A stretch of DNA of 64,000 nt, from the NCBI GenBank assembly GCA_964495425.1, contig CAZBVG010000003.1, positions 64,518 through 128,517 on the forward strand, in the 5' to 3' direction. Positions 3,473-62,204 of the stretch are shown piece by piece (positions within the stretch are counted from its first letter, which is position 1; each line of letters opens with the position of its first letter). Origin of the DNA: an uncultured Candidatus Saccharibacteria bacterium. GTDB lineage: Bacteria > Patescibacteriota > Minisyncoccia > Phycocordibacterales > UBA6065. The notes under the pieces were generated by a model. It did no database searches, was not told the DNA's origin, and worked only from the letters and a program-made list of their open reading frames with translations. Position numbers and translations under genes: made by a program.

Positions 3473-3531
3473 GGGTCGTCTTTCGCCCTTTTGACTTTCA
3501 ATTTATATTTAAAATCTGTACAATTGTTGGT

Positions 3532-3768
3532 ATGAAAAAAGTAGAAATATATTCAACGCCGGTGTGTAAGTATTGTGTCGCGGCAAAAGATTTCTTCAAG
3601 AAACATAATATTGAGTACTCTGAGTACAATGTTGCGGCAGATCAAGCGAAGAGGGAGGAAATGGTAGAAAAATCTGGTCAGCTTGGTGTACCAGTGATTG
3701 ATGTGGGTGGTGATATCGTCGTTGGTTACGATGAAAAAGTCTTGAAGGAACTTCTCGAAGTTAAATAG
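3532..3768 (+). CDS. Glutaredoxin-like protein (NrdH/YruB-type, CxxC thiol-disulfide oxidoreductase)
   Basis: 78 aa. CKYC active site at the start of helix 1 (VEIYSTPVCKYCVAAKDFF). GVPVIDVGGDIVVGYD matches the glutaredoxin fold. Confidence 0.75.
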   Translation: MKKVEIYSTPVCKYCVAAKDFFKKHNIEYSEYNVAADQAKREEMVEKSGQLGVPVIDVGGDIVVGYDEKVLKELLEVK

Positions 3769-3775
3769 GATACTG

Positions 3776-3802
3776 AAAAAGCCACCGATCGGTGGCTTTT
3801 TC
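3776..3802. terminator. Hairpin terminator (gccaccgatcggtggc + T-run)
   Basis: Palindromic 16-mer flanked by A5 and T5; lies between the grx-like gene and the tRNA-Phe 3' end. Confidence 0.6.
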
Positions 3803-3809
3803 TTGTCTG

Positions 3810-3882
3810 TGCTTGGGGCCGGGCTCGAACCGGCGACCCCCTCCTCTTCAGGGAGATGCTCTACCAACTGAGCTACCCAAGC
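3810..3882 (-). tRNA. tRNA-Phe (anticodon GAA)
   Basis: Reverse complement folds as GCTTGGG-TA-GCTC-AGTTGGTA-GAGC-A-TCTCC-CTGAAGA-GGAGG-GGGTC-GCCGG-TTCGAGC-CCGGC-CCCAAGC-A. Cloverleaf has a 7-bp acceptor stem; CCA is not encoded. Confidence 0.85.
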
Positions 3883-3887
3883 ATGAT

Positions 3888-4142
3888 TTATAAGTCTTTG
3901 AGGAGCTCTTCAAACGAATTTGTTGAAGGTCCTGGAGTGTCTCCTGCAGCACTCTTTAAAGCGTCAAAATAGGGCTGTATAAAGTAGAATGCTCCAAATG
4001 AGACTCCTAGTATGACTATCCAGTAGATTATCTTGAGAGCAGCGCTGGTACGGTTCATACGCTGGATGCTTTTAAGCACTTTTGAGTTCTCTTCGGTGAG
4101 AGCCTTAACTTCCTCAAGTAATCGACGATCTTCTGGAGTCAT
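3888..4142 (-). CDS. Small single-pass membrane protein (hypothetical)
   Basis: The ORF-track 166-aa ORF was trimmed to the M of MTPEDRRLLEEVKALTEENSKVLKSIQRM...IIYWIVILGVSFGAFYFI. The upstream extension runs into GC-rich foreign DNA and is probably not translated. Confidence 0.4.
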   Translation of the reverse strand: MTPEDRRLLEEVKALTEENSKVLKSIQRMNRTSAALKIIYWIVILGVSFGAFYFIQPYFDALKSAAGDTPGPSTNSFEELLKDL

Positions 4143-4355
4143 GGGTGTAAGTATACCCAAAAAAGGCTCAAAAACAAGATTCTGTGTCTCTATACGACGC
4201 GGCTCGAACCTATTTTCAAGGACAGTCGATGCCGTGACCCCTCGGGGAATCGAACTGGAGTGGGTATCCCCAGAGGTATCCCCGCCTGGGGATACCCTGT
4301 CGTCCTGATCGGTGGTTGCAGGCCTTCGCGGCGTCGAGTTTTCCACAGCGGCAGC

Positions 4356-4426
4356 TCCCCCCGACTGGTTGCTCGTATCAGCGACCACGGGTTTACGGCT
4401 TCACCACGCGCTTTCTTCCGGTCGAG
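4356..4426. repeat. Left 71-bp terminal inverted repeat (IR-L)
   Basis: tccccccgactggttgctcgtatcagcgaccacgggtttacggcttcaccacgcgctttcttccggtcgag equals the reverse complement of 5870-5940 at 71/71 positions. Confidence 0.85.
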
Positions 4427-4437
4427 GTGACGGGTCT

Positions 4438-4466
4438 TTGCGCGCCATGCGCGACACTGGTATGAT
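4438..4466 (+). promoter_or_regulatory. Sigma70-like promoter TTGCGC-17-TATGAT directly upstream of the recombinase ATG (likely leaderless transcript)
   Basis: -35 ttgcgc at 4438-4443; 17-nt spacer; -10 tatgat at 4461-4466. The ATG at 4475 is only 9 nt after the -10 element, and there is no room for an SD sequence. Confidence 0.35.
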
Positions 4467-4474
4467 GCGCACGC

Positions 4475-5986
4475 ATGGCAGCAGACACGAAATATTTCAT
4501 ATACCTCCGAAAATCGACAGACCGTGACGACATGCAGACTCTCTCGATAGAGTCGCAGCGTGACGAGCTAACCGAGTTCGTAAAGCGACTAGATCTAAAC
4601 GTCGTCGGTGAATTCGAGGATCGCAGGTCAGCGAAGCGCCCTGGCCGGCCCGAATTTAGCGAAATGCTTCGGAGGATCGAGCGGGGCGAAGCCAACGGCA
4701 TCGTCGCCTGGGCGCCCGACCGTCTCTCACGCAACGCGCGCGACGGCGGAACCATCATCGACATGCTCGACACCGAGACGCTCACCGATCTCAAGTTTCC
4801 GACGTTCTGGTTCGAGAACACCGCGCAGGGCCGCCAGATGCTCGCGAACGCGTTCATCCAATCGAAATACTACGTCGACGACCTGAGCCAGAACACCAAG
4901 CGCGGACTCAGGAAGAAGGTGCGCCTAGGCATTTGCCCGACCTTTGCGCCCGTCGGGTATCTCAACGATCTGAAAACGAAGCAGTGGGTGGTGGACGAGA
5001 CTCGCCGTGGCGCGATTGTTTCGCTCTTCGAACTTCACGCAACCGGTGAGAGCACCCTTGAACAGGACCGCGCTTATCTCGACTCAATAGGGTTCAAGAT
5101 GCGGCCGACCAAGAAGAACCCCGACGGTCGGCCGATAAGCCGCACAGAGGTGGCCATGATCCTGCACGAACCGGCATACTACGGCCATTTCATGTATTGC
5201 GGCGAGCTGCACGAGGGAAAGCACCAGCCGATCATCTCGAAGACGCTCTATGATCGCGTGCAGGAGGTATTCGCGCAGCACTGGCCATCCCTCCCCAAGC
5301 AGCGCCGCGACAAGCCGTATCTCGGCCTTTTGAAGTGCGCTGAATGCGGCGGCGCAATCACCGCAGAGGTCCAGAAAGGCCACGTGTATTATCGTTGCAC
5401 GAAAAAGAGCAAAAACGTTCGGTGCTCTCAGCCGTTCCTGCGAGGCGAAGACCTCGACGCGGAAGTAGCCTCGGTGATTGCACCGTATGGCCTAACCGCT
5501 GAAGCCGGCGCGGACATGCTGGCGAGGCTCGACCAGGAAGAGGGGGCGTCGAAGGCGACGCGCAAAGCCACAATCGAGCGCCTGCAAAACGCGGCCGCGC
5601 AGGTTACCCGAAGCATCAATATGCTCCTAGACATGGTCCTCTCCGGCGAGATCAGTCGCGACATCTTCACGGGTAAGAAGGCGACACTTCTGAGCGAGAA
5701 GAGGCTCTTGGAGGAACAGATTGCCGCGGTCTCCAAAGGCCGCATACCATGGCTCGAACCGATGCGTAACTGGGTTTTCACCGCTCTACAGGTAGGCGAA
5801 ACTGCCACTGTTGGCACGCCGAACCAGCGTCGCGCTCTCGCCTCAGAAATCTTCGGCTCGAACCTTGTTCTCGACCGGAAGAAAGCGCGTGGTGAAGCCG
5901 TAAACCCGTGGTCGCTGATACGAGCAACCAGTCGGGGGGATACACTGGTGCCCTCAGCAGGAATCGAACCTACATCTTCTCCTTAG
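4475..5986 (+). CDS. Large serine recombinase (resolvase-domain N-terminus + recombinase domain + zinc ribbon)
   Basis: YLRKSTDRDDMQTLSIESQ carries the catalytic-Ser motif of the resolvase/invertase fold. DRLSRN is present. Central recombinase domain. Zinc ribbon C-x2-C...YYRC-x11-C (KCAECGG...YYRCTKKSKNVRCS). A coiled-coil tail follows. 503 aa. Confidence 0.85.
   Translation: MAADTKYFIYLRKSTDRDDMQTLSIESQRDELTEFVKRLDLNVVGEFEDRRSAKRPGRPEFSEMLRRIERGEANGIVAWAPDRLSRNARDGGTIIDMLDTETLTDLKFPTFWFENTAQGRQMLANAFIQSKYYVDDLSQNTKRGLRKKVRLGICPTFAPVGYLNDLKTKQWVVDETRRGAIVSLFELHATGESTLEQDRAYLDSIGFKMRPTKKNPDGRPISRTEVAMILHEPAYYGHFMYCGELHEGKHQPIISKTLYDRVQEVFAQHWPSLPKQRRDKPYLGLLKCAECGGAITAEVQKGHVYYRCTKKSKNVRCSQPFLRGEDLDAEVASVIAPYGLTAEAGADMLARLDQEEGASKATRKATIERLQNAAAQVTRSINMLLDMVLSGEISRDIFTGKKATLLSEKRLLEEQIAAVSKGRIPWLEPMRNWVFTALQVGETATVGTPNQRRALASEIFGSNLVLDRKKARGEAVNPWSLIRATSRGDTLVPSAGIEPTSSP
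5870..5940. repeat. Right 71-bp terminal inverted repeat (IR-R), overlapping the recombinase 3' end
   Basis: Exact reverse complement of 4356-4426; ends 5 nt before the CCA end of tRNA-Arg. Confidence 0.85.
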
Positions 5987-6020
5987 GACGGAGCTGCTCT
6001 ATCCATTGAGCTATGAAGGC
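5946..6020 (-). tRNA. tRNA-Arg (anticodon CCT), CCA encoded
   Basis: Reverse complement GCCTTCA-TA-GCTC-AATGGATA-GAGC-A-GCTCC-GTCCTAA-GGAGA-AGAT-GTAGG-TTCGATT-CCTGC-TGAGGGC-A-CCA. Anticodon-stem pair 27-43 is a G.A mismatch. Confidence 0.8.
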
Positions 6021-6050
6021 AGTGTGATCAATCTACCATTCGGACACCTT

Positions 6051-6087
6051 AAATCAAAATCCCGCTTTTGGGCGGGATTTTGATTTT
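6051..6087. terminator. Bidirectional terminator-like hairpin (aaatcaaaatcccgc-ttttg-ggcgggattttgattt)
   Basis: 15-bp U-rich stem directly downstream of the Hsp20 stop on the minus strand. Confidence 0.55.
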
Positions 6088-6091
6088 GTGT

Positions 6092-6541
6092 TTAAGCAGA
6101 TTTAACTCGGAGTTTGTTTTGTTTGGATTTGTCTACCTTTGGAAGTCGAATGATGAGAAGACCGTGGCGTTCAACCGCTTCAGCTTCTTCGACATCAATT
6201 TCTTCGGGAAGCATAACTGTTCGAGAGAATGAGCCCCAATAGAGTTCTTTGTGGAAGTAATCATGATTGTGAACATCATTTGATTCCTCGCGTTTTCCTT
6301 TAATGGTCACCATGTCTCGAGTGATATTTACGTCGAGATCATCAGGCCGAACTCCGGCGACCATGGTTTTGATCACAATTTCATCAGGTGTTTGGTAGAC
6401 ATCTACAGAAAGTTCACCTTCTTCCTCTGATTCCTCAAGGATGTGATTTCTTGACGGTCGTTCAGTCTCTTCTACCGCCTCCTCATCAAGCTTTACGGTG
6501 CCCGTGAGGCGTTCAAAGAATGATTTTTTTGATGGCTGCAT
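6092..6541 (-). CDS. Hsp20/alpha-crystallin family small heat-shock protein
   Basis: Alpha-crystallin domain: LSVDVYQTPDEIVIKTMVAGVRPDDLDVNITRDMVTIKGKRE...GSFSRTVMLPEEIDVEEAEAVERHGLLIIRLPK. Confidence 0.85.
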   Translation of the reverse strand: MQPSKKSFFERLTGTVKLDEEAVEETERPSRNHILEESEEEGELSVDVYQTPDEIVIKTMVAGVRPDDLDVNITRDMVTIKGKREESNDVHNHDYFHKELYWGSFSRTVMLPEEIDVEEAEAVERHGLLIIRLPKVDKSKQNKLRVKSA

Positions 6542-6547
6542 ATGTTT

Positions 6548-7249
6548 TTATTGTGCTTGTACCTTTTTTATTCTTTCAAACAGGAGGAGTATTCCGATAA
6601 CTGCCATCCAGACGCCAGCAAAAACGAGAAACGTCTTCTCTCCGTTCTGATATATTATAAACATGTTAAACATCGTATGCAATGCAACTGCGATGACTAA
6701 ACCAATCACTCTCCAGCTTATTCTTGCCACTATTCCTCTATAGAACTCGCGGCCAATACAATAACCGAGAACACCTGAGGCGACTACATGCAAGAGGCTT
6801 GCTCCAATAAAGCGCATGTTGCCGGTAATGATGCTTTGGAAGGCATGACCACCCAACAGAGGATTAAGGATAAAGAGGGTATTTTCAAGTGCGGCAAAGC
6901 CAAGGGCACAGGTGATGAGGTATTCAAGTGCATCAATAGGTTCATCGAATGCTTTTGAATGAAGCGCGGTAATAGATACCATGAGGTATTTTGCCGCCTC
7001 CTCTATAAGCGCCCATATAAGAAGAGTGGCGTTTGATACACCAAAGTGTTCATAGATGAATCGCTCAAGAGGGTAAACGATGGGAACAGCAATCATACCG
7101 CCCCAAAATGCAAAAAGAATTCTTCCGCGAGGTTCAGGGTGTAGCTTGTCCTCTTGTAACCAAAACCAGAGCCAAAACAGAGCAGGGAGAATGCCACCAA
7201 CAGCAGCAAAGATAAGAAGGTACAGATTTGATGTACTTAAATCGGCCAT
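6548..7249 (-). CDS. PrsW-family intramembrane protease-like protein
   Basis: Polytopic membrane protein with EEAAK and FAALEN motifs and a conserved His (ASLLHVV), typical of PrsW/CPBP-like proteases. Confidence 0.5.
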   Translation of the reverse strand: MADLSTSNLYLLIFAAVGGILPALFWLWFWLQEDKLHPEPRGRILFAFWGGMIAVPIVYPLERFIYEHFGVSNATLLIWALIEEAAKYLMVSITALHSKAFDEPIDALEYLITCALGFAALENTLFILNPLLGGHAFQSIITGNMRFIGASLLHVVASGVLGYCIGREFYRGIVARISWRVIGLVIAVALHTMFNMFIIYQNGEKTFLVFAGVWMAVIGILLLFERIKKVQAQ

Positions 7250-61639: not shown

Positions 61640-62204
61640 CCTTGATTTCGTGTTTCGTTGTTGGCTTCATATGAAGTCGACGCACGTTGTTATTGAACTG
61701 TAGGAGTCTACCTCGCCCATGAATAATGGTCCCCCGCAGAATCGCAGCTCCAACCTCTTGTGCGTCAGTGTCCTCAACGCCGGCCGCGGCGACGTCAGCT
61801 AATCGCTGACGTCGGCCTTAACCTTTCCGTTATGATTCAGCAGACCGCGTGATCGCCGGCACAAGTTGCCGGTGGAAAGAGATTACGAGGAAAGAAAACC
61901 TGAAAAGCCACTGCAGGCATGAGTATTCGTAGATTGTAGGTGTCAGGACTTGATCCTGAAACGAACCGACGATCAAAGTTTTTATCACAATTTTTTAGAA
62001 AAAAAGTGTGAGCCTAGAGGAAGCAGAGCCTCCAGAGGAAGTTGTTTCTACAAGGACACTAAACAAATCAGAAATACGTCCATGTGGTTTCAAAAAGACC
62101 TCAACCCACCAAAGCAATTTGGTGGGTTCTTTGTTTCTGGACAACTTATATACAAAAGAGTATGGTTGGGGCGGAATAGATTTTCAACATCAAACACTCT
62201 CATT
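61640..62204 (+). ncRNA. Long GC-rich structured leader or independent ncRNA candidate
   Basis: Lies downstream of a consensus-like promoter and has no credible ORF. Local GC is elevated and hairpins include gacgtcagc-taatc-gctgacgtc at 61793-61815. Ends at a hypothetical ORF. Confidence 0.3.

Follow-up and report, generated by a model that had tools for sequence, protein, structure and literature searches.

A probable minimal integrative element at the 3' end of a tRNA-Arg(CCT) gene, with the attachment site of a large serine recombinase inside its own reading frame

The recombinase gene, the inverted repeat and the tRNA-Arg(CCT) gene

The window (the whole 64-kb stretch of DNA that was analysed) contained a plus-strand open reading frame of 503 aa (4475-5986) which, in its present integrated state, consists of a native part (4475-5947) and a final 13 codons (5948-5986) that are antisense tRNA-Arg sequence. 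Three domains scored above their Pfam cut-offs: Resolvase (PF00239; 74.4 bits, cut-off 23.3, residues 8-150), Recombinase (PF07508; 31 bits, cut-off 21.1) and Zn_ribbon_recom (PF13408; 45.6 bits, cut-off 25.3). On this domain content the protein is a large serine recombinase (LSR), as the initial annotation had classified it. An alignment of 19 homologs had more than 100 invariant columns, including R12, S14, D82, R83 and R86 and the Cys cluster C288, C291, C308 and C317, and the intact ORF retained every family-invariant residue. The protein scored under all NCBIfam cut-offs and was no more than 27% identical to the phage integrases of the collection searched. Its distant structure matches were SprA, A118 and TP901-1, and 18 relatives were present among 2.9 million viral contigs. 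The same protein was found on 4-5 contigs, with the exact protein confined to this genome.

The ORF runs into a minus-strand tRNA-Arg(CCT) gene (5946-6020, CCA end at 5946), which was intact (ARAGORN; Rfam tRNA, 60.7 bits) and is overlapped by 41 nt. Two arms of an inverted repeat, IR-L (4356-4426) and IR-R (5870-5940), were reverse complements at 71/71 positions with a spacing of 1443 nt, and an arm 30-mer occurred at two sites only in the 64-kb window (0 expected from shuffles). The perfect repeat, the 503-aa LSR and its adjacency to tRNA-Arg(CCT), all described previously, were verified by alignment, Pfam and ARAGORN/Rfam. The last 23 codons of the gene had been assigned to IR-R and the final 15 to the tRNA gene; the first figure held (about 23.7 codons) and the second was reduced to 12.7 codons plus the stop (5946-5986). 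No further copies of the repeat or the recombinase were found elsewhere in the window. A consensus promoter scan of 4100-6150 returned nothing at threshold, and the sole terminator in a scan of the same interval was the Hsp20/tRNA hairpin at 6051-6086. A weak promoter-like TTGCGC-N17-TATGAT (4438-4466) was found by hand.

Element ends, attachment junctions and the displaced 3' end of the gene

Junction analysis set the ends of the element at 4187 and 5947 (1.76 kb), with the core CAC (tRNA nt 72-74) on both sides, a shared core of only 3 nt at which resolution stops short of the exact 2-nt crossover. The left core copy (4184-4186; GTG, CAC on the tRNA strand) is the attR junction between host DNA and a segment that we call the X arm, and in tRNA sense it reads ...GGTTCGAGCCGCGTCGTATAGAGACAC before the junction and AGAATCTTG after it. 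The right core copy (5948-5950; GTG, representing C72-A73-C74 of tRNA-Arg) is the attL junction. The final 7 nt of the element (tacacTG, 5941-5947) provide, at 5946-5947, bases C75 and A76 of the tRNA, neither of which is encoded by the genes of relatives. On the tRNA side the window reads GAGGGCAC followed by CAgtgta and the repeat, and on the other side ...GTATAGAGACAC followed by AGAATC; left-flank similarity to the relative L082 picks up again at CTTGTTTT. The reconstructed attP sequence is ...GTATAGAGACACCAGTGTATCCCCCC..., the predicted circular junction ...GATACACTGGTGTCTCTATACGAC..., the predicted circular attP ...CGGGGGGATACACTGGTGTCTCTATACGACGCGG... and the predicted restored attB ...CTGAGGGCACAGAATCTTGTTTTTG... 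GC content was 59.2% in the element and 43.6% in the remainder of the window, which upheld the earlier view that the segment is foreign, and the foreign GC-rich sequence reached 169 bp further left than IR-L.

Relatives were located via the neighbouring ValRS gene and six contexts were compared with respect to the state of the tRNA end, not to both flanks jointly. The element was absent at tRNA-Arg(CCT) in the six contexts, with the Hsp20-Grx interval rearranged, and in three relatives the element-free tRNA-Arg(CCT) gene ended in ...GAGGGCACA followed directly by A, with CCA unencoded. The empty locus that an insertion implies was recovered as far as the tRNA end is concerned; no exact orthologous site in which the two window flanks adjoin was found among these ValRS-neighbour relatives, and the contig of the closest one (L115, 89% ValRS identity) stops inside the tRNA. 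Both host flanks of the element belong to one Taylorbacteria-like genome. The tRNA-Phe/tRNA-Arg block beside the element was rearranged among relatives.

The CAC on either side of the element, the element-free tRNA gene of relatives and the junction triads seen at about 18 loci (see below) form the signature of a conservative short-core attP × attB reaction that yields attL and attR and leaves the target unduplicated. On this sequence evidence the locus is an integrase-mediated insertion and not an insertion sequence with terminal repeats, and site-specific insertion at the tRNA 3' end, as first suggested, was borne out by the junctions and the relatives. The alternative raised at the same time, an IS- or transposon-like unit at 4356-5940 with 71-bp terminal inverted repeats and a serine transposase, fits a perfect repeat that encloses a single recombinase gene, and TnpX and TndX are LSRs that act as transposases. 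The arms are, however, internal, lying 169 nt (IR-L) and 7 nt (IR-R) from the respective element ends, and the att-type junctions (4186/4187 and 5947/5948) lie away from them. Nor is the mobile unit a single gene between terminal repeats, for it also holds, over the 169 bp past IR-L, a foreign and family-conserved X arm (4187-4355) with the displaced last 16 codons of the gene. IR-L is coreless, unlike in all other family members, the repeats of relatives are internal to elements of up to >20 kb, and the IS607 model NF033518 stayed below its threshold (16.8 bits, cut-off 110). IS607 was also rejected on domain order, with a small TnpA that starts with a MerR-like HTH in that group and an N-terminal catalytic domain followed by the LSR domains here. 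The IS-like reading is already contradicted by these data and we consider it highly improbable.

The X arm (minus strand) was present as a sole copy at the left end of the integrase-mediated insertion and comprises the P arm of attP and a 3' UTR-like region. An nhmmer profile made from 33 family loci matched the minus strand of the window at 4227-4184 (E=4e-9), and the arm could be aligned to its counterparts in L002 and L004. Credible Rfam matches over 3500-6600 at a permissive threshold were two tRNAs only, so the X arm corresponds to no known RNA family. A T-arm-like stretch at 4238-4262 was rejected as a tRNA fragment, with no ARAGORN or Rfam call; in P0026 a comparable stretch gives ...SGIEP... 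on translation. A host ORF (window 3888-4388) is over-extended into the element.

The native 3' terminus of the recombinase gene, 16 codons and a stop (SLYDAARTYFQGQSMP followed by the stop), now lies displaced at 4187-4237 on the plus strand and in a circularised element would be in frame with the codon at 5945-5947 (...LV). A conserved tail of roughly 14 aa (xLYNxARTYFxxN) is read across the intact attP in the family, 12-19 aa long in 35/45 loci (mode 14 aa), and 40 of the 45 tails contained x-R-T-aromatic-F with an Arg codon that was CGA in 30 and AGA in 7. Tails of the integrated form scattered widely, from 0 to 123 codons. The P-form proteins P0043 and P0050 had the C-termini ...GGMVSLFDTARTFFQGQS and ...GGLVSVYDAARTFFQGQASL, and the tails of the 120 closest database proteins were tRNA-antisense in 107 and native in four. 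Two short P-form contigs (L118 and L119) lacked terminal overlap and do not qualify as excised circles.

A T-loop-like motif, GGCTCGAACC, had four exact matches in the window compared to 0.16 expected, the fourth being the T-loop of tRNA-Phe. The other three copies, all on the plus strand, fall in three reading frames and show synonymous-site conservation. Copy 1 (4201-4210) lies in the native tail and is read as A-R-T, copy 2 (5751-5760) as (W)-L-E-P (family codons CTC 44/60 and GAA 60/60), and copy 3 (5855-5864), 104 nt past copy 2 and 6 nt ahead of IR-R, as G-S-N-L, with family codons GGC in 35/36, TCG in 33/36 and AAC in 36/36 compared to backgrounds of 41%, 15% and 46%. These motifs are candidate recognition sites, a role that would account for the many tRNA species used; the likeness of the X-arm motif to a T-loop is confounded, the same bases encoding the A-R-T-Y-F tail.

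A homologous family with inverted attachment-site duplicates

About 80 homologous loci had a common architecture in which the recombinase gene runs antisense into a tRNA 3' end. At 46 of the 63 loci whose repeat measured 60 nt or more, IR-R ended 3-9 nt (mostly 5-6) inside a minus-strand tRNA 3' end, and the tRNAs at those loci covered 16 amino-acid identities and 30 isoacceptors. Three junctions, P-core-P', B-core-P' and P-core-B' (attP, attL and attR), were read at about 18 loci, with a core that varied with the discriminator base of the tRNA (CACCA, CTCCA, CCGCCA) and the host trailer often starting directly past nt 74. A single scan of species-representative genomes confirmed at least 591 family copies, most of them in Patescibacteria. 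The elements abound in the tiny genomes of this group, where one genome often has several, each at a different tRNA gene. The cargo of the family comprises restriction-modification, defence and metabolic genes and was delimited via identical-protein contexts; host-flank sharing among the 80 loci gave a single uninformative pair. A description of the family was not found in the literature, with coverage incomplete and novelty thus unproven.

IR-R encodes the conserved C-terminal segment LDRKKARGEAVNPWSLIRATSRG and, judged from these comparisons, is at once the conserved 3' terminus of the recombinase coding sequence and the P' arm of attP, an arm of which IR-L is a spare inverted copy. This comes close to the earlier proposal of a novel att architecture in which the repeats serve as arms for recombinase binding. 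Other copies, absent from the rest of the window, did exist at homologous loci: an equivalent repeat was present in 63/80 (72-179 nt long with a median of 127, and 99.2% identical in the median, 27 of them perfect), inverted, upstream of the recombinase gene and copying the 3' end of that gene. Arms are near-perfect family-wide though the proteins are only 40-50% identical, which points to concerted evolution. The undiverged repeats had been taken as a mark of recent insertion; on these alignments perfect arm identity, taken alone, is no sign of recent arrival.

In relatives the X arm is also duplicated in inverted orientation (86-269 nt, most 154-269 nt; 81-100% identity), the duplicates enclosing 0.9-5.2 kb of variable cargo, and the conserved non-coding X arm completes a second, intact attP. 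The window copy lacked cargo, had the X arm once only and carried a spare repeat that is truncated; neither a recombination directionality factor (RDF) candidate nor a second gene was found within the element. IR-L lacks the outermost 10 nt of the arm (CACCAgtgta), among them the crossover core, which is present at that position in every other family member. The second attP of the window is probably a vestige, IR-L minus the core and X arm. The lone inverted X arm abutting IR-L was unique among about 57 loci inspected, and the element may therefore be defective.

Inverted arms might alternatively be the crossover sites of a Hin-like switch, in which 4427-5869 flips and alters the C-terminus or the expression of the recombinase. 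Four relatives were assembled in the flipped gene state (tRNA(+)-CCA, then IR-L and gene(+)), contigs were broken in X/IR-L or IR-R at 44/80 loci, and inversion between the X repeats is documented by the cargo of one element, found in both orientations across different samples at 99.9-100% identity; a flip in full elements would also bring back the conserved native tail. The IR-L of the window, however, is without core and without a correctly oriented X arm, so that a flip would fuse the ORF to a non-conserved X read-through of 56 codons and not to the native tail. Flipping here would be possible only by RecA-type recombination over 71 bp, a single orientation was assembled, and the same protein was found on 4-5 contigs. 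A Hin/Gin-type switch in the strict sense (about 190 aa, C-terminal HTH, short sites) is ruled out by the 503-aa LSR and the coreless IR-L, and we regard a switch at this locus as improbable.

The sequence comes from a metagenome assembly of sample SAMN08389277 and one related contig (L082) is plainly a palindromic artefact, which would allow the repeat to be an assembly artefact or the contig to be chimeric. Against this, the architecture recurred in 63/80 independent loci that stem from numerous studies and assembly programs and each have a sequence specific to their element, the flanks on both sides derive from the one Taylorbacteria-like genome and 71 bp is below typical read length, making an artefact extremely improbable.

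Proposed mechanism, known systems and significance

We consider it quite likely that 4187-5947 is a minimal, cargo-less integrative element mobilised by an LSR, with attP within the ORF and insertion at a tRNA end. This builds on the observed coordinates, the junction logic of about 18 full elements, the three element-free relatives, the in-frame tail and the two segment orientations in relatives. In the proposed mechanism attP would lie inside the recombinase ORF, 16 codons ahead of the native stop, and the LSR, which would itself catalyse the reaction, would recombine it with the terminus of tRNA-Arg(CCT) at nt 72-74 (CAC). The products would be attL, joining the tRNA to the P' arm (IR-R) at 5948-5950, and attR, joining the P arm (X) to the host trailer at 4184-4186. 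The tRNA gene would be left intact and would gain an encoded CCA, and the recombinase would lose its native tail, stranded at 4187-4237, and in its place take 13 codons of tRNA-antisense sequence. In the family the complete attP region (300-400 bp, made up of X arm, core and P' arm) is normally present twice and inverted, one copy serving integration and the other staying intact just upstream of the gene, and a full element may rejoin its ORF to the spare native tail by inverting the gene segment. The window copy may be a deletion derivative. Deletion between CCCCCGACT microhomologies as the origin of the cargo-less form was favoured by one alignment and failed in a longer alignment, and was dropped.

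A dead relic, integrated as proposed and then fixed after loss of the second attP and cargo, with no native integrase made from the chromosome, is a possible but rather unlikely description of the present copy. The architecture unique among the inspected loci, the native tail detached from the gene, the absence of an RDF and a second gene and the restriction of the exact protein to this genome all fit such a relic. The intact ORF with its invariant residues, the intact attL and attR, and the 100% identical arms with unameliorated GC, which argue for a recent event, do not, and inactivity of the tRNA-tailed protein is an assumption. For the family that the integrative element represents, the joint reading is of a widespread set of LSRs that would recognise the T-arm/acceptor end and cross over at nt 72-74, with many tRNA species per enzyme type. 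The attP in their own ORF would make integration swap the tail, a second inverted and homogenised attP would make gene and cargo invertible and regenerate the native integrase, and T-loop-mimic motifs in three frames would serve as recognition sites; we give this combination about even chances.

Phage and ICE serine integrases use simple 40-50-bp sites and protein-coding or intergenic targets, and we know of none with a long inverted attP duplicate. The element shares with A118/LI, phiC31, Bxb1, TP901-1 and SPbeta SprA the combination of Resolvase, Recombinase and Zn ribbon, the attP × attB logic and a short core. Integration within the integrase ORF also alters or splits the C-terminus in Myxococcus phage Mx8 (intP/intX), whose target is a tRNA 3' end, and in Sulfolobus SSV1 (int); unlike here, these are tyrosine recombinases with other chemistry, and no spare inverted 3'-end copy is known there. 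Inverted-repeat-flanked segments in both orientations are likewise found with Hin and Gin, both of them small serine recombinases that use 26-bp sites and an enhancer, and with FLP/FRT of the 2-micron plasmid, a tyrosine recombinase system on a replicating plasmid. As in the 2-micron plasmid, the putative circle would have two long inverted repeats, each with a recombination site, parting two unique regions of which one encodes the recombinase; unlike in Hin, Gin and FLP, the repeats would be attP duplicates of an integrative element. SCC membership was rejected (CcrB 68 bits, cut-off 900; CcrA 55, cut-off 700; CcrC 48, cut-off 900), as was an Islander-type island (a serine and not a tyrosine integrase, a 3-nt repeat only, and no left-end tRNA fragment called by ARAGORN/Rfam).

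The tycheposons of Prochlorococcus are also small cargo-carrying elements at tRNA genes; 910/937 use tyrosine recombinases, with LSRs in a minority, their flanks are partial tRNA repeats, and unlike in the present family an inverted attP architecture is undescribed there (Hackl et al., bioRxiv 10.1101/2020.12.28.424599). The ssrA-specific islands of Dehalococcoides carry a CcrB-like LSR, DsiB, whose ORF always overlaps attL antisense into the RNA gene, with a variable C-terminus, and the authors suggested that the gene is perhaps fully functional only on the circular form (McMurdie et al., 2011; PMC3146451). The conserved in-frame tail supports that idea for the present serine-integrase family. 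By description, the two systems share LSR insertion in the 3' portion of a tRNA or tmRNA gene and an ORF antisense over attL (46/63 family loci). They differ in the site (in DsiB islands the T-loop of tmRNA, where a 20-bp direct repeat is left, and here tRNA nt 72-74 with a 3-nt core), in gene content (a six-gene integration module including DsiA is required there, one gene is present here) and in targets (a single gene there, at least 30 isoacceptors in the present family), and no inverted attP duplicate is described for DsiB. Serine integrases are thought to avoid tRNA genes, and in 2020 their use of such genes was termed unreported, with 14/297 predicted cases (PMC7192596).

The locus exposes two systematic annotation errors, the reading of recombinase C-termini on into tRNA genes and the calling of host ORFs that extend too far into the element, and the long inverted repeats of the family break metagenome assemblies. 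Serine integrases are valued in genome engineering because their sites are short and host factors are unneeded, and a clade that docks on the conserved 3' ends of many tRNA genes and leaves those genes undamaged would give a near-universal natural landing site. The elements may also drive rearrangements between tRNA genes. Finally, the family suggests an undescribed form of serine-integrase control, in which an attP inside the ORF would swap the tail upon integration and a spare inverted attP would reverse the swap.

Insertion at the 3' end of tRNA-Arg(CCT)

The two repeat arms (IR-L, 4356-4426; IR-R, 5870-5940) were exact reverse complements over 71/71 positions, as the initial annotation had stated, with a spacer of 1443 nt, and an arm-derived 30-mer occurred twice in the window, at the two arms, and not in shuffled sequences. 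The annotated large serine recombinase (LSR) gene was confirmed between them: the ORF (4475-5986, plus strand; 503 aa) matched Resolvase, Recombinase and Zn_ribbon_recom above Pfam cut-offs and overlapped by 41 nt the tRNA-Arg(CCT) gene (5946-6020, minus strand), whose CCA end points toward it. The described GC-rich character also held, with GC near 60% from about 4190 to 5945 and an element average of 59.2% vs 43.6% for the remaining window. GC-rich DNA started about 165 bp left of IR-L, the first hint that the repeats are not terminal as had been claimed, and the element was found to extend from 4187 to 5947 (1761 bp). A profile of the conserved arm X (4187-4355) gave a single match in the window (4227-4184, minus strand), so the window carries just the left-end copy, directly adjoining IR-L; no cargo and no second X were present. 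A weak profile match at 61987-62022 (plus strand; E=0.04), with no adjoining tRNA gene, is probably due to chance. The outer CACCAgtgta was present after IR-R and missing from IR-L.

Read in tRNA sense with a slash at the junction, attL was GAGGGCAC/CAgtgtaTCCCCCC... and attR was ...GGTTCGAGCCGCGTCGTATAGAGACAC/AGAATCTTG. The search for tRNA-Arg(CCT) without the element succeeded in three Taylorbacteria-like host relatives (ValRS identity 83-87%), where the gene lacks an encoded CCA and ends GAGGGCACA/A..., giving ...GAGGGCAC/AGAATC... as the pre-insertion site. Copies of a 3-nt core lay at 4184-4186 and 5948-5950, C75-A76 of the tRNA being supplied by the element, and on the left flank homology to a relative's contig (L082) picked up at CTTGTTTT, 8 nt off the junction. 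A strictly orthologous empty site matching on both flanks was not found among the host relatives compared, because the Hsp20-glutaredoxin interval is rearranged among them. The att-type junctions at nt 72-74 agree with the integrase-mediated insertion at a tRNA 3' end that had been proposed, and the element is an integrase-type insertion at these nucleotides, not a transposon with terminal repeats.

That interval (window 3500-6600, compared with the close relatives' loci L083, L082 and L116) has tRNA genes as its borders and is a hot spot of rearrangement, in which the order and orientation of tRNA-Phe, a small membrane-protein gene and tRNA-Arg vary and TK, MsrA and MsrB occur in some relatives only. 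A publicly called 166-aa ORF (3888-4388, minus strand; 9414-9914 on contig L001) spans the X arm and IR-L; ATG 4142 is the most likely start of the underlying host gene, which encodes an 84-aa small membrane protein with an 88-aa homolog adjoining tRNA-Phe in L082. L082 (1-10715; NCBI GCA_040384025.1, JAWVHG010006891.1) mirrors itself around ~6776, running ValRS-PrsW-Hsp20-tRNA-Phe-gene88-Lnb_N-tRNA-Arg and then reversed; the contig is an artefactual palindrome from the assembly of a public MAG. At 5226-5400 it carries a 25-nt duplicate of the tRNA-Phe 5' part ahead of an intact tRNA-Phe, with about 150 nt of GC-rich sequence in between; this arrangement looks like the scar of another tRNA-targeting element.

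Family architecture

Homologs of the recombinase numbered in the thousands. The closest 120, counted without this genome's own identical entry, shared 36-50% identity across 89% or more of the query, and most were ~500 aa long; the exact sequence occurred in this genome only. The protein is a genuine LSR, distant from characterised ones: identity to phage integrases was at most 27%, the SprA, A118 and TP901-1 structures were weak matches, and scores for the CcrA, CcrB, CcrC, XisF and IS607 models fell far under cut-offs. At least 591 relatives were confirmed in a scan of species-representative genomes, mostly Patescibacteria with other labels including Elusimicrobia, Omnitrophota, Verrucomicrobiota and Planctomycetes, and 80 of their loci were kept for comparison. 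Viral relatives were just 18 among 2.9 million viral contigs.

An equivalent inverted repeat, with one arm 5' of the start codon and its partner forming the gene 3' end, recurred in 63/80 loci (72-179 nt, median 127; median identity 99.2%; 27 perfect). In 46/63, IR-R reached into the 3' end of a minus-strand tRNA gene by 3-9 nt (usually 5-6), these tRNAs covering 16 amino-acid identities and 30 isoacceptors. Proteins of different elements were 40-50% identical, yet the two arms within each were near-identical, so the arms evolve in concert. The repeat is not an assembly artefact, and the argument that undiverged repeats mean recent arrival did not stand, since by itself the repeat is no sign of a recent event.

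X, conserved and non-coding, lay left of IR-L in every typical locus, its terminus ...TTGATAAAATAgGTTCGAGC-N6-GTA-N5 directly adjoining CACCA-IR-L. A second, inverted X stood 0.9-5.2 kb further upstream in about 20 loci (copies 86-269 nt, most 154-269; identity 81-100%), the DNA between being variable cargo with apparent ORFs, by sequence reading, for alanine racemase, methylase/restriction, XRE regulators, glycosyltransferases, an aminoacyl-tRNA synthetase-like protein and transposase. In one orientation, each element has three junctions, X-core-IR-L, tRNA-core-IR-R and inverted X-core-host trailer, which read as P-core-P', B-core-P' and P-core-B', i.e., an intact attP, attL and attR. The core corresponds to tRNA nt 72-76 and varies with the discriminator base (mostly CACCA; CTCCA at tRNA-Thr; CCGCCA at tRNA-Ser). 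The attR host trailer directly follows nt 74 in several loci (CAC/AAATTT, CAC/AGGTAC, CTC/ATGG, CCGC/AAAA), so the crossover must fall within nt 72-74. The integrated full element runs rc(X)-cargo-X.IR-L-gene-IR-R (rc, reverse complement), the structure that conservative recombination would yield from a circle holding the whole attP region twice, in inverted orientation, with one copy used. The 71-bp repeat of the window is a truncated spare copy of the attP P' arm, a probable relic or remnant of this family-wide dual-attP architecture, and the window copy is the simplest member seen, possibly crippled. Two complete elements lay <10 kb apart at different tRNA genes in two loci (L050, 2595-9431; L038, 3743-9440; tRNA pairs Leu-taa + Leu-gag and Thr-ggt + Tyr-gta), so genomes can hold several copies.

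T-loop-like motifs and the exchanged C-terminal tail

GGCTCGAACC occurred four times in the window vs 0.16 expected, once as the T-loop of tRNA-Phe and three times in the element (4201, 5751, 5855), there in three different reading frames (A-R-T, L-E-P, G-S-N). Its synonymous positions were nearly fixed family-wide (GGC in 35/36, background 41%; TCG in 33/36, 15%; AAC in 36/36, 46%; GAA in 60/60, 62%; CTC in 44/60, 17%), which indicates a DNA-level constraint. In X, 23 nt separate the motif from the core; in tRNAs, the T-loop is 19 nt away from it. Serine integrases have attP-type and attB-type half-sites that differ in spacing, and the 4-nt shift may recall this difference. The many tRNA species used as targets would be explained if the universal T-arm/acceptor end is the part recognised.

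In a 19-homolog alignment a C-terminal block (FGSNLVLDxKKARGxxxxPWSLL), encoded by IR-R, was conserved and followed by tails such as GMVRAAGFEPATPTV, tRNA T-loops read antisense. To obtain the native tails, the frame of the recombinase was followed across IR, core and rc(X), the order present on an intact attP. They measured 12-19 aa in 35/45 loci (mode 14 aa), vs a scatter of 0 to 123 codons in the integrated state, and 40/45 had an x-R-T-aromatic-F pattern, typically xLYNxARTYFxxN before the stop. For the tail Arg, 30 loci use CGA and 7 use AGA, which points to selection on the peptide in addition to that on the DNA. The window's native tail, SLYDAARTYFQGQSMP plus stop, lies at 4187-4237, the element end opposite the rest of the gene. 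A tRNA-antisense tail was present on 107 of the 120 closest database proteins and a native tail on 4; on two native-tail contigs (L118, L119) the gene is followed by an intact IR-core-rc(X). DsiB, from the ssrA islands of Dehalococcoides, is in the same situation, with an ORF end changed by integration, and the authors who described it suspected the gene to be complete on the circle only (PMC3146451). A 2020 survey stated that t(m)RNA gene use by serine integrases was unreported and predicted it in 14/297 cases (PMC7192596); the ssrA islands are an earlier exception (PMC3146451).

Directly after the displaced native stop, window 4238-4300 contains a stretch resembling a tRNA T-arm (CCCCTCGGGGAATCGAACTGGAG) together with three hairpin-capable copies of GGTATCCCC/GGGGATACC. 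GGGGATACC hairpins, possibly a terminator or a protein-binding site, likewise occur in the X arms of L118, L119 and two further loci (L002, L004). Directly upstream of the recombinase, the native-tail contigs, which belong to the window's subfamily, carry a small conserved ORF (L118, 2-151; L119, 139-306; ...KKNPAAVALGKLGGxKGGxARAKxLSxxER...) that is missing from the window and could encode an accessory DNA-binding factor.

Inversion of gene and cargo segments

Inversion in the family is real. Four loci (L018, L032, L044, L046) were assembled as tRNA(+)-CCA/IR-L-gene(+)-IR-R, with the gene segment flipped relative to the tRNA. In one element (ENA GROS21-1 scaffolds L087/L088/L095; identical recombinase on 16 contigs), different samples show the >20-kb cargo between the X repeats in either orientation (identity 99.9-100%), with breakpoints exactly at the X boundaries. 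This cargo encodes ClpP, HU, a CHAP-domain protein, an HTH/M78 peptidase pair, a DnaG-like primase, an FtsK-like ATPase, and, as a ubiquitin-like defence system, ThiF with BilA/BilB-like genes. Between IR-L and the recombinase is a further gene, of 198 aa and without annotation. Contigs ended in X/IR-L or IR-R in 44/80 cases. Either the recombinase or homologous recombination by the host may be the inverting agent. If the gene segment of a full element flipped, its ORF would become continuous with the spare native tail, a proposed reason for keeping the second attP.

A full-text literature search returned no account of the family or of inverted attP duplication. As far as found, the family combines undescribed features, which are supported by comparative sequence evidence: targeting of multiple tRNAs at the discriminator base, an attP placed within the ORF so that a conserved tail can be swapped, gene and cargo modules that can invert, and apparent T-loop mimics inside coding sequence.
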